Below are positions 38,948 to 50,119 of a stretch of DNA of 64,000 bases, one piece after another. The stretch's first letter is position 1. Each line of letters opens with the position of its first letter. The DNA is from Tolypothrix carrinoi HA7290-LM1 (lineage in GTDB: Bacteria > Cyanobacteriota > Cyanobacteriia > Cyanobacteriales > Nostocaceae). Location: positions 36,046 through 100,045 of the forward strand of contig JAHHIK010000016.1 in the NCBI GenBank assembly GCA_019358935.1, written 5' to 3'. Under the pieces are notes generated by a model. It was not told where the DNA came from, made no database searches, and saw nothing but the letters and a program-made list of their open reading frames with translations. Position numbers and translations under genes: made by a program.

Positions 38948-40003
38948 TTAAGTTTGTACTGCAAATTCATCTGGATCGATTCCCCAGTTTACCCAACGAA
39001 TCGCCTCTCGCGCTGATTTTACATCAGGTGGGACGCGCAACACATGAATAAATCCGGTACTGGGGCAAGTCATCTTTAGCAGATAAATTGGCTCGATATC
39101 TATATTATTATCAATTTTTAATAATGTATATTCTTGATATGAATCTAATTCAGTTGCTTGCAATTGTTGGATAATGCGAGTGTAACCGATACCCTGAATT
39201 AACACTCGCCGCAGTTCGGCATTATCTTCTTCTAAAAGCCATTTAGCTTGCCATTCTTGCGGATGTAGTTTGCCGTATTTTTCTGGTAACGTCACACCAT
39301 GATAAGCGTAGAGGCTGTATCCGTCTGTAAATTGTATCGCGGGTTCGCCTTCGGCGTGCAGTCGGTTTTGGTTGTCGAAGCGCAGGTGAATCGGGCGATC
39401 GCATACAATACAAATATTTTCAAAAGGGAAAATCCAGCCGCAATTTTTGACAAGTGACTCAAATATATTACTGAGTTTTTCAGAAAAGCTGCAATTTAAT
39501 ATAGAATTACAACAGTCAATAAAAATATACAATCGATATGATTCTATTTGAATCATGTATTCTAGCAAATCAGAAGTTACATCAAAATCTATATCAATAA
39601 AAACTAGACGGACATTATCCAAAATAATTTGATTATATAGTAACGATTCATCTAGATTCAGTAATCTTATAATTTTTTCATAGACAATATCAGGTGATTT
39701 ATCTTTAAATTCATCGCTATATTTTTCAAAAAAATCTTTATCGAATAAATAAATTTGCTTAATTAAATTCTTTTTCTCATCAGGTAGATTGAAAATAGTT
39801 TGTAGTGCGCTGTAAGGACTAGAACAAAAAACTATTTGTGGTTGTTGCCAATCAATCAAACCGTAAGCTGCTTTAATCGCTTCCCTCGCTTTTTCTCTAT
39901 CAATTCTCTCAGTTGAAAGCGCAATTTTTCTCCACTTTTCGCGAGAAACCGGAATCAAGGCTTCTTGTTCTGGAGTTAGCTTTGTAATCTTTTTTTGTGA
40001 CAT
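38948..40003 (-). CDS. DUF6745-like protein
   Basis: LTPEQEALIP..EKW N-terminus; RLHAEGEPAI, NAELRR, MTCPSTG..LRVPP C-terminus. Confidence 0.75.
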   Translation of the reverse strand: MSQKKITKLTPEQEALIPVSREKWRKIALSTERIDREKAREAIKAAYGLIDWQQPQIVFCSSPYSALQTIFNLPDEKKNLIKQIYLFDKDFFEKYSDEFKDKSPDIVYEKIIRLLNLDESLLYNQIILDNVRLVFIDIDFDVTSDLLEYMIQIESYRLYIFIDCCNSILNCSFSEKLSNIFESLVKNCGWIFPFENICIVCDRPIHLRFDNQNRLHAEGEPAIQFTDGYSLYAYHGVTLPEKYGKLHPQEWQAKWLLEEDNAELRRVLIQGIGYTRIIQQLQATELDSYQEYTLLKIDNNIDIEPIYLLKMTCPSTGFIHVLRVPPDVKSAREAIRWVNWGIDPDEFAVQT

Positions 40004-40104: not shown

Positions 40105-40218
40105 ACCAGGAAATAAATTTCCTGGCTAATAGCGTAAGTCCTCGCATATAGGACTATAAATCCATATTTAGTCCACTTAAGTGGACTTATGCTATAAGCC
40201 TGGGATTTAAATCCCAGG
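40105..40218. repeat. Multi-hairpin REP/MITE-like element
   Basis: CCAGGAAAT-A-AATTTCCTGG-like hairpin, AGTCCACTTAAGTGGACT, CCTGGGATTTAAATCCCAGG palindromes. Confidence 0.65.
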
Positions 40219-40261
40219 TGGGTAAAATGCTTGTTGCAAGATTAACCTTTAACAAAAAATC

Positions 40262-40432
40262 TTAAGTTTGTCGTGCAGCTTTTCTAACAGTTTCCACATC
40301 TACCTCTAATATTTCTGCAATCTCCTGCAAACTTAATCCGCGTTGCAAAAGCTTGGGAACAACTTCTAGCTTACCTTCTTCCTTCGCTTCTTGATAAAGT
40401 CTCGTGTGCTTAATTAAGCTTAAATCTAGCAT
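40262..40432 (-). CDS. Stand-alone small Rpn C-terminal protein (RpnS-like, 56 aa)
   Basis: SD AAGGAG then ATG 40432; MLDLSLIKHTRLYQEAKEEGKLEVVPKLLQRGLSLQEIAEILEVDVETVRKAARQT; diverged copy of the C-terminus of the upstream Rpn. Confidence 0.78.
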   Translation of the reverse strand: MLDLSLIKHTRLYQEAKEEGKLEVVPKLLQRGLSLQEIAEILEVDVETVRKAARQT

Positions 40433-40477
40433 TGCTTCTATCTCCTTTCGACTTAAATGGAGTTTTGAGAAAAAATG

Positions 40478-41257
40478 TTAAGTTTGTCGTGCAGCTTTTC
40501 TAACAGTTTCTACATCTACCTCTAATATTTCTGCAATTTCCTGCAAACTTAATCCGCGTTGTAAAAGCTTGGGAACAACTTCTAGCTTACCTTCTTCCTT
40601 TCCTTCTTCCTTCGCTTCTTGATAAACCCTCGTGTGCTTAATGAAATCTAAATTTAGCATTGCTTCTATCTCCTCTCGACTTAAATTTGGAAACTTGTAA
40701 ACAAAAATAGTCTCTATAAATTCTAAAACTTTATCTTGGATAATGACATCTGTTAATTCTTCCCTAGCTTTGTTAACTAATTGTTTCGCAAATTGGATAG
40801 CATTATTCTGACTCTCGACAATTAACTTCAAAATTCCTAAACCTAAAGATGATGCAACTTCCTCAAGTTCATTTAGGTAAACGCATCGCAGATGCATTTC
40901 TCTTAAAGCGTGATAACGTGGTGGATATACGCTTTCGTTGCTGCGTTTATCATATATAACTATAGCGTACCAATCAGGGTTAGCCGGTTGGTATTGACTA
41001 AAGTAAAGGAAGATTCCCGTAAAAAGTCTGTCATAGAATTCTTCGTCTTTGTAAAACTGAACCTCTACAAAATAAATCGGTTCGTTAGAGAAGTTTTCTA
41101 AGGTTGAAAATACACCATCTAATCGAAAGCTGCGCTGTTTGATTTCTGGAGTTGTGAACTCGTAAATATTCGGGTTGGTTTGCGGTTTATTAATTAGTTC
41201 AAAGAAGATGTCAGGAAATTCTTTAAATAACTCGTAGAAAATTGCATCTGTTTTCAT
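40478..41257 (-). CDS. Rpn family recombination-promoting nuclease (DUF2887, PD-(D/E)XK)
   Basis: MKTDAIFYELF, RLDGV...FVEVQF, C-terminal EEGK + HTH-like tail; internal SD GAGGAG + ATG at 40660. Confidence 0.9.
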   Translation of the reverse strand: MKTDAIFYELFKEFPDIFFELINKPQTNPNIYEFTTPEIKQRSFRLDGVFSTLENFSNEPIYFVEVQFYKDEEFYDRLFTGIFLYFSQYQPANPDWYAIVIYDKRSNESVYPPRYHALREMHLRCVYLNELEEVASSLGLGILKLIVESQNNAIQFAKQLVNKAREELTDVIIQDKVLEFIETIFVYKFPNLSREEIEAMLNLDFIKHTRVYQEAKEEGKEEGKLEVVPKLLQRGLSLQEIAEILEVDVETVRKAARQT

Positions 41258-41410: not shown

Positions 41411-41600
41411 CTAAATTTCGGCGATGATTTGCTGCACTCGTTGTAAACTAGTTTTATCCTGTCTTTGCGAATAGATTCTTACAGCTTGCTCAAAAGCTTG
41501 CTTTGCTTCGACTTTCTTTTTTAAACTTAACAAAGCGTTACCTTTATTTTCATGGATCTTCGGCAAAATTAGGATTGCGTTGAATTACGCGATCGCAATC
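41411..41600 (-). pseudogene. TPR protein 3' remnant with frameshift
   Basis: DRVIQRNPNFAE / HENKGNALLSLKKKVEAKQAFEQAVRIY in two frames; homology appears to begin near a HIP1 site. Confidence 0.55.
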
Positions 41601-48674: not shown

Positions 48675-48795
48675 AATTAGCGCTTCAAAAGCCAAGGTGA
48701 TGGATTGTTGATCATGGTTACTAGTAGATATTAATTGACGATTGCCGGATAATTTTTCAGGGATTGGCCATCACAAAACCGGAAAAGGGGGGGCA

Positions 48796-50119
48796 ATGGA
48801 ACGACCAAGGTATATCGTGCGGCTCAGTACAGAAGAACGGGCAGAATTGGAAAGCATCGTCAAAAAGGGGAAAGGGAGCGCACACAAGATTCGTAACGCA
48901 CAAAGAAAGCTGCATAGCGATGTGAATGGAGAACGTCTGACGGTAGAGGCGATCGCAAAACTGCTTCATTGCCATAAGGATACCGTCTGCGAAGCCCGCA
49001 AACGCTTTGTGACACGTGGCTTTACGGGTGCCTTGGAGCGCAAGAAACAAGATCGCCTGTCGGTAGAGCCGTTATTTGATGGAGCAGCCGAAGCGCGATT
49101 GATCGCTTTGGCCTGTGGTAGCCCACCGGAGGGGCGTGCCCGGTGGACGCTGCAACTGTTGTCAGACAAAGTGGTGGAACTGCAAATTGTTCGGCATTGT
49201 ACGGCCAACACCATCCATGAAGTGCTAAAAAAAACGAACTCAAGCCGCATTTACGGCAATGTTGGGTCATTCCCCCAGAGCAGGATGCCGATTTCGTAGC
49301 GGCGATGGAAGATGTGCTGGAGGTTTATCATCGTCCTTATGACGCCGACTATCCAGTGGTATGTATGGATGAGCAGCCCATCCAGCTTACCAAAGAGACA
49401 CGCATACCCCTGCCTGTGGAACCAGGAAAACCGAAACGGTATGACCATGAATATGAGCGAAACGGTACCGCAAGCATTTTTATGTTTACCGAACCAAAAG
49501 CTGGAAAACGCACTGTTTCCGCACGCGAACAGCGCACGATGACCGACTGGGCACAACAAATAAAGTACCTGCTCGATGAGCAATATCCAAACGCGAAAAA
49601 GGTTGTGCTGGTTTGTGATAACCTTAACACCCACAAACCAGCGGCACTTTACAAAGCCTTTAAGCCGGAAGAGGCACGCCGACTGCTCGCCCGCCTGGAA
49701 ATTCATCATACCCCAAAACATGGCTCGTGGCTGAACATGGCCGAAATAGAACTCGCCGCCCTGACCAAGCCCCGTTGGGGCGGGGTGTAGGGTATGGGGT
49801 GTGGGGTGTGGGGGAAGAGATAGCCCCAACAACCAGTGGGTCACAAGCCCCATTCTTTAGGACGATTGCGTTGGTCGGGGTTTCAAGCCCTGACCAACGC
49901 CGTCAACGAGACCTGCAACCCTAACCATGCAACCCCACACCCTTCTTGTTGACACGACAATGTCTCGACCGTCGCATCCCCGATCTTCAAACCCTGCAAT
50001 CCGAACTCGTCGCTTGGAACGTGACTAGAGACGTTGCCGCCACAAAAATCAACTGGCAATTCACTACCAATGACGCACGCTTAAAGCTCAAACGCCTATA
50101 TCCGGTTATCGACGATTAG
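48796..50119 (+). pseudogene. IS630 transposase (orfA/orfB, -1 frameshift), interrupted
   Basis: HTH orfA; A8C slippery site 49227-49235; DDE residues MDE, CDN, AEIE; C-terminus TRQCLDRRIP...LKRLYP resumes after 49953. Confidence 0.88.
49766..49953. mobile_element. 188-bp non-autonomous element inserted after TGAC in the IS630 transposase
   Basis: CTGAC|CAAGCCCC...GTTGAC|ACGA; removal restores CTG ACA CGA CAA TGT (L-T-R-Q-C); internal hairpins. Confidence 0.8.

Follow-up and report, generated by a model that had tools for sequence, protein, structure and literature searches.

The locus studied here, a DUF2887 gene and the small reading frame directly downstream of it in Tolypothrix carrinoi HA7290-LM1, very probably belongs to the RpnL/RpnS/rpnSs kind published from E. 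coli (PMC10400941), and this placement is more secure than any single role for the downstream copy. Taking the locus as a whole, we lean towards a gene-within-gene toxin-antitoxin whose downstream copy is an rpnSs, likely translated, that has the tail of another allele, is likely mismatched to its own RpnL by one repeat, and is exchanged with the gene by recombination.

Anatomy of the rpn locus

The window, meaning the whole stretch of DNA that was analysed, is 64,000 nucleotides long. The features of the locus within it are as follows.

40478..41257, minus strand: rpnL, gene for a 259-aa DUF2887 Rpn-family PD-(D/E)XK nuclease (ORF list, profile matches)
41057..41119, minus strand: predicted catalytic motif D47...E65-x-Q67 of RpnL (family conservation and published EXQ motif)
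40670..40675, minus strand: internal Shine-Dalgarno (SD) sequence GAGGAG, spanning two Glu codons, 9 nt 5' of the internal ATG
40478..40660, minus strand: predicted RpnS, 60 aa, in-frame within rpnL (start codon conserved among homologs)
40589..40612, minus strand: a pair of 4-aa repeat units (KEEG KEEG) within the RpnL/RpnS long helix (unit number differs among orthologs)
40459..40477, minus strand: 19-nt spacer and duplication junction (identical junction in G009 (L003) and L227)
40442..40447, minus strand: SD AAGGAG of the downstream copy, 9 nt 5' of its ATG
40262..40432, minus strand: rpnSs-type stand-alone copy, an intact 56-aa ORF with one repeat unit fewer (ORF list, alignment)
40373..40384, minus strand: single KEEG unit of the downstream copy (alignment)

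As the first-pass annotation had described, the Rpn gene contains an internal SD and an in-frame ATG at 40660 that opens a 60-aa product, and the downstream duplicate is restricted to the tail module and holds an intact 56-aa ORF at 40262-40432. Two of its measurements are corrected here: SD and ATG are separated by 9 nt, not 8 nt, in each of the two copies, and the 5' edge of the duplicate lies at 40458 instead of 40459. The duplicated block (40248-40458 versus 40464-40686, minus strand) extends from 26 nt 5' of the ATG to ~14 nt beyond the stop, and the duplicate identity was 94% and 89% ungapped, with 94.4% across the aligned part. The copy ORF repeats the final 60 codons of rpnL with one 12-nt in-frame indel (4 codons), four amino-acid changes (codons 3, 5, 6 and 12) and four synonymous changes (codons 11, 29, 37 and 46). 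The amino-acid changes in the first 12 residues and the indel were thus reported correctly at first pass, and the count of three synonymous changes was one short, the fourth being at codon 11. The helix-turn-helix (HTH) part of the copy is unchanged in protein compared to its own RpnS. The copy has the same orientation as rpnL and a strong SD, and begins 19 nt 3' of the rpnL stop. The main start of rpnL has no SD 4-mer, whereas both the internal ATG and the ATG of the copy have an SD hexamer. An assembly artefact was rejected as the source of the tandem copy: besides the indel, the blocks show 10 mismatches among aligned bases, and two other assemblies contain the same junction.

RpnL matches PF11103 (DUF2887) at 241.8 bits and passes the Rpn family model TIGR01784 (88.3 bits versus a cut-off of 52.1), a model that 11 matches in the source genome pass on their own score. 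No match to PF04754 (YhgA-like, the E. coli-type Rpn) was found anywhere in the source genome; with PF11103 matched instead, the protein is therefore placed in a sister clade and not in the E. coli subfamily. In the predicted structure of RpnL (pLDDT 81.8), an alpha/beta domain at the N-terminus is followed by a helical middle part, then a long helix and finally a helix-turn-helix. The top matches of a fold search with this model were PD-(D/E)XK nucleases at modest scores, the best being a Pyrococcus repair endonuclease (Z 8.9, rmsd 3.3, 105 aligned), with McrBC (Z 7.8) and restriction enzymes among the others. A sequence search of the PDB with the long protein found no Rpn structure. Residues D47, E65 and Q67 are kept in 192/192 intact distinct homologs, and D4 in 188 of them. 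The clade is about 50–70% identical within itself, and the named relatives of RpnL are nearly all cyanobacteria. DUF2887 had been predicted to be a PD-(D/E)XK nuclease with an EXQ motif, a resolvase-like HTH and a YhgA-like link (PMC3045609), and its function was listed as unknown (PMC3424549). These prediction papers describe the same family, motif and architecture as RpnL here, and the available parts of their text mention no internal start or small protein.

The neighbours of the rpn locus in the window are housekeeping genes (murE, IPP isomerase, sppA, cysH, sbcD). PADLOC, run on 14 neighbourhood proteins, gave no call for Rpn or the copy, and one weak BrxP match on cysH. Directly upstream of rpnL, at 41411-41566 (minus strand), is a 51-aa TPR remnant; at its position L227 encodes an intact protein of 414 aa that combines N-terminal pentapeptide-like repeats with TPRs, so the window has apparently lost most of this gene by deletion. 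On the downstream side lies a DUF6745 gene (38948-40003, minus strand), whose N-terminal part is divergent in G001 and whose 3' end alone is found in G003 and L227. The differences at these two genes indicate rapid turnover on either side of the rpn locus. A short intergenic element 3' of the copy (about 40165-40220) matches several unrelated contigs with different flanks and is probably a dispersed small repeat. Elsewhere in the window, an IS630-family transposase is in pieces (48742-49790 and about 49946-50119), its last part apparently set apart by an insertion of unrelated sequence, and a gene for a four-helix-bundle protein (TIGR02436; 33113-33490, plus strand) is flanked by heptamer tandem repeats. 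The heptamer repeats and the GCGATCGC sites in the window fit Nostocales.

The internal start across the family

The precedent for this anatomy is the work of Zhong et al. 2023 (PMC10400941). In the portion of that paper available, RpnL is toxic and the internally translated RpnS is its antitoxin, inhibition is cognate-specific between E. coli RpnA and RpnB, a one-repeat mismatch abolished inhibition for RpnC (the one protein so examined), and RpnP2 protects against phage. The same portion names separate downstream copies rpnSs (rpnESs (ypaA), rpnCSs, RpnFSs and RpnP1Ss), reports RpnESs (ypaA) detected as protein in E. coli, and describes the copies as arising independently from the upstream gene and disappearing either through deletion or through fusion with the N-terminal domain. 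A commentary by Koonin also mentions the second copy (PMC10400984). As far as that text goes, E. coli rpnE-ypaA and rpnC-rpnCSs are like the window locus in having an internal SD and ATG plus a separate downstream small gene derived from the upstream rpn, and the 4-aa unit variation of the E. coli systems is found at cyanobacterial DUF2887 loci as well. The E. coli Rpn proteins are PF04754, whereas the long protein here is a cyanobacterial PF11103 protein.

The family test used 229 locus records, of which 60 came from genome searches, 80 were regions picked among the 150 matches listed of 397, 80 were collection matches (the best 80 of 592) and 9 came from the source genome. The records yielded 211 intact full-length ORFs, 192 of them distinct; 20 records without an intact ORF were excluded from the counts. 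A DUF2887 match, often several, was carried by 39/41 of the genomes searched. The internal start codon is ATG in 191/192 homologs and GTG in the remaining one. An SD 4-mer lies 5' of it in 189/192, compared to 9/131 of the other internal Met codons and a background of 6.6% of all codons. The two Glu codons that supply the SD are biased in the same direction: GAG is used in 123/130 cases at position -5 from the internal ATG and in 145/186 at -4, compared to 749/3332 among upstream Glu codons. The Glu codon at -2 is GAG in only 15/149. Because the GAG preference is a synonymous choice, conservation of the protein cannot account for it. The homologs are related (85 clusters at 80% identity), so the counts overstate independence, but the effect is still near-universal. 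Chance is excluded as the explanation of the internal start, and of the repeat itself. The initial proposal that the DUF2887 locus has RpnL/RpnS gene-within-gene anatomy is borne out by this family-wide conservation of the internal SD and ATG at the nucleotide level.

The main start of the long gene is GTG or TTG in 133/175 scored genes (17 skipped), with an SD in 10/175. Such an imbalance between a weak main start and a strong internal one would be expected if the cell produces an excess of the small protein. In the promoter scan, three minus-strand promoter-like sites were placed 60–170 nt 5' of the internal ATG, with 4 sites compared to 4.2 expected by chance; promoter and terminator scanning of the locus gave chance-level results overall.

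RpnS is predicted to form a helix and an HTH, and gives a weak C-terminal TIGR01784 match. A PDB search with the small-protein profile found no Rpn structure, and 7TH0 (E. coli RpnAS) was not among its matches. The KEEG units begin at RpnS residue 17, within a predicted helix (210–225, low confidence). This agrees with the hypervariable 4-aa repeats of RpnL/RpnS pairs, which lie in the long helix and start 8–20 residues after the Met of the small protein.

Several related loci in the same genome and elsewhere were recorded on the way. At G000 C66 (17514-18339, minus strand) a DUF2887 paralog is split near residue 185 by a ~50 bp frame-shifting insert, and its internal SD and ATG and small ORF are left intact. 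Tandem Rpn arrays occur at L237, L238 and L240, in which neighbours alternate two tail types after the same internal SD and ATG. G000 C22, C45, C101 and C120 encode ~290-aa proteins that resemble Uma2-type nucleases and end in a variable coiled-coil repeat plus HTH as an RpnS-like tail; among these four, a purine-rich stretch before an internal Met was seen in C22 only.

Downstream copies among orthologs and across the family

The copy is 52/56 identical to its own RpnS, with a 4-aa gap, and 54/56 identical, at equal length, to the tail of the long-gene fragment P0021. Its D-L-S-L N-terminus is found within the long genes P0021 and P0026, and the S-L within G003 and P0019. Three of its four N-terminal changes therefore occur in same-locus long-gene alleles (P0021, P0026), V12L being the sole private change of the copy among the sequences seen. 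Because the long-gene alleles vary at the same positions, the N-terminal clustering is a property of the locus, not one peculiar to the copy. Across the surveyed copies, amino-acid changes were no denser at the N-terminus (pN 0.078) than in the HTH part (0.092), and N-terminal diversification was rejected as a family rule. The label 'diversified' given to the copy at first pass thus describes real changes, but ones largely shared with other alleles of the locus and not part of a family trend.

Two other alleles share the duplication junction of the window. L227, the most distant of the four alleles (92–93% versus 96.8–97.6%), has an intact copy that keeps S-L, and a frameshifted long gene. Stops interrupt rpnL as well as the copy in G009, where the copy matches its own rpnL at species-specific bases, which suggests gene conversion; L141, counted with G009, has a changed catalytic Glu codon as well. 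Cases of a broken rpnL or a broken copy are few and fall in both directions. The fourth allele, G001, has no copy. Its rpnL has both KEEG units plus a KQEIV unit found in the copies P0001 and P0002, and is followed by the flank that sits 3' of the copy in the window. This single-copy state fits a deletion that fused the copy to rpnL, as described for E. coli; since informative sites among the four alleles conflict (5/4/2) and the KQEIV unit is also present in the long gene P0024, G001 could instead be the ancestral single-copy state. RNA of related strains gave assembled contigs with a 6–15% word share, from which start, strand and level are unreadable, and one contig of RNA run X5 has a single-copy state like that of G001. 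Compared by sequence, copy presence, conversion, breakage and apparent re-fusion all occur among the orthologs.

In the source genome, 6/9 DUF2887 loci have a downstream copy (C16, C39, C71, C11 with two, C47 and C82 in the DUF2887 survey), of which the second C11 copy and the C47 copy are frameshifted. Across the family, an RpnS-profile match lay within 750 nt downstream at 43/187 loci with enough flank, never on the opposite strand (0), and the other 144/187 had no downstream copy. Alignment at the DNA level gave 58 duplicated segments in 48 loci, 9 of them large or whole-gene and 49 tail-only, the latter distributed over 42 loci (22 clusters). Rule-based classification scored 36 of the tail-only copies as intact, 9 as broken and 4 as start-less; an ATG is present in 44/49 and an SD 4-mer in 34/49. 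The 5' edge lies 14–75 nt before the ATG in 33/49, several at -14 to -16 with short spacers. Copies thus recur in the family and in most cases retain the ATG and the SD; the 9/49 broken and 4 start-less ones weaken the reading that they are under selection. Copy presence is patchy, 13/23 copy-bearing clusters being mixed. The nearest RpnS of the 42 testable copies was that of the upstream gene in 21 cases, of its 80% cluster in 21 and of another cluster in 0; by this sequence measure, the stand-alone copies derive locally, from the upstream rpn gene.

Copies and upstream genes also differ in their repeats. The length of the repeat region differed from that of the upstream gene in 33/34 scorable intact copies, by multiples of four in 32/33 of the differences, and the repeat number differed in all 18 copies with at least 90% identity. 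The excess of repeat mismatch in copies is nevertheless weak, because long-gene pairs within clusters also differ in repeat length in 362/435 cases (Fisher p = 0.028 ignoring kinship, about 0.17 at the cluster level).

Selection on the free ORF had been suggested at first pass from the synonymous pattern of the changes. The pN/pS of gene versus copy was 0.31 (cluster bootstrap 0.36, 0.27–0.45), with lower values of 0.11–0.23 in long-gene pairs. The untranslated 5' part of the duplicates, summed over 12/14 segments (2 dropped for >30% difference, two loci contributing twice), had pN 0.034 and pS 0.144, and was as synonymous-biased as the translated part. Because this control behaves like the translated part, dN/dS was rejected as proof of selection on the free copy, and the suggestion is weakened. 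The synonymous bias of the copies may be inherited from functional alleles.

Two further sets of relatives were noted in the survey. Just after 12127 (minus strand) of G000 C82, and at L125, an old and strongly diverged 54-aa ORF, intact in two genomes, starts one base past the rpnL stop; no other copy is as good a candidate for a functional rpnSs that has been kept for long. On L241 (5574-7017; the conjugative plasmid NZ_CP097481.1) an rpn gene with an annotated 60-aa downstream gene adjoins an N-6 methylase and helicases, a setting more defence-like than that of the window. In all, 31 plasmid records matched; no relatives were found in IMG/VR contigs or among 50,697 phage records.

Role of the downstream copy

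In the reading we lean to, the internally started 60-aa RpnS would restrain the nuclease RpnL by analogy with E. coli, where the toxicity and the anti-phage role supposed for RpnL also have their model (PMC10400941). The 56-aa copy, likely translated, would carry the tail found in another allele of this gene, and its one-repeat mismatch would make it a poor inhibitor of its own RpnL, to judge from E. coli RpnC (PMC10400941). The orthologs suggest that recombination moves sequence between the copy and the rpnL tail, and that rpnL would acquire a different tail and repeat number through a deletion between them. In that case the copy would be less a spare for another paralog than a transient reserve of an alternative tail and specificity.

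Three other accounts of the copy were weighed against this. The one put forward at first pass, divergence of the copy towards neutralising some other Rpn paralog of the same genome, is now very improbable. There are candidates enough, with 9 DUF2887 loci and further Rpn-like genes in the source genome, and the changes are confined to the first 12 residues of the copy. But the tails of the genome's own paralogs match just 29–32 of its 56 residues, and no paralog ending in the copy's sequence was found in the 99.65%-complete source genome, the best reaching 32/56. With none of the 42 surveyed copies nearest to another cluster, specificity for another paralog was rejected; E. coli RpnA/RpnB inhibition is also cognate-specific in the text available (PMC10400941). 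It is unlikely, too, that the copy is simply a dose booster, that is, translated and still inhibiting the RpnL directly upstream, its differences being tolerated drift. An intact ORF of the same orientation with a strong SD 19 nt after the rpnL stop, the 52/56 identity and the unchanged HTH protein are what such a booster would look like, and the stops in both G009 genes are as expected if the copy serves its own toxin. The repeat number, however, differs here and in 33/34 copies, a type of mismatch that abolished inhibition in E. coli RpnC; the L227 copy is intact beside a frameshifted rpnL, and 144/187 loci do without a copy.

About equally unlikely in our judgement is that recombination at a repeat-rich and possibly self-cutting gene end left the copy behind without any function; it would look intact on account of its youth or of conversion from functional alleles. 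The 13/49 copies that are broken or start-less, the 13/23 mixed clusters, the untranslated part that is equally synonymous-biased, and the frameshifts in the C47 and second C11 copies of the source genome would all follow from it. Yet the 5' edges concentrate just upstream of the SD (33/49 within -75 to -14), old diverged small ORFs stay intact (C82 and L125, 54 aa), and the E. coli counterpart is made as protein according to the text available (PMC10400941). The complex prediction of RpnL 1-199 with the 56-aa copy scored 0.00 in two runs and is evidence neither way.

A more specific form of the alternative-tail reading, which we consider rather unlikely, is that the copies are selected swap cassettes. 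Such cassettes, kept at a repeat number and allele other than those of the upstream gene (33/34), would periodically be recombined into rpnL to give it a new tail and specificity, and would pre-immunise the cell against a neighbouring repeat state or an incoming same-locus allele. In Rhs/CDI orphan C-terminal tip/immunity cassettes and in type I restriction hsdS shuffling, stored gene ends swap in by recombination, and the likeness to these systems is the downstream store of alternative gene ends. The rpn case differs in that what is stored would be an inhibitor instead of a toxic tip, that the stored piece is usually single and has its own SD and ATG, and that no dedicated recombinase or array was seen here.

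The downstream-copy arrangement itself has been known since 2023 (PMC10400941). Its extension to cyanobacterial DUF2887 was not found in the literature: no mention of DUF2887, PF11103 or cyanobacteria occurs in the supplements of PMC10400941 other than Dataset S1, which may list such genes, and a literature search reaching few subscription journals found no cyanobacterial Rpn small-protein study and no follow-up on rpnSs function. On codon-level evidence, the present analysis carries the gene-within-gene layout of Rpn over to a large cyanobacterial family whose function is listed as unknown. If the copies are indeed swap cassettes, they would represent orphan-cassette diversification of an anti-phage toxin at about a quarter of cyanobacterial DUF2887 loci. 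The natural allele series, with 1, 2 or 3 repeat units and the copy present, absent or broken, makes the role of rpnSs directly testable.
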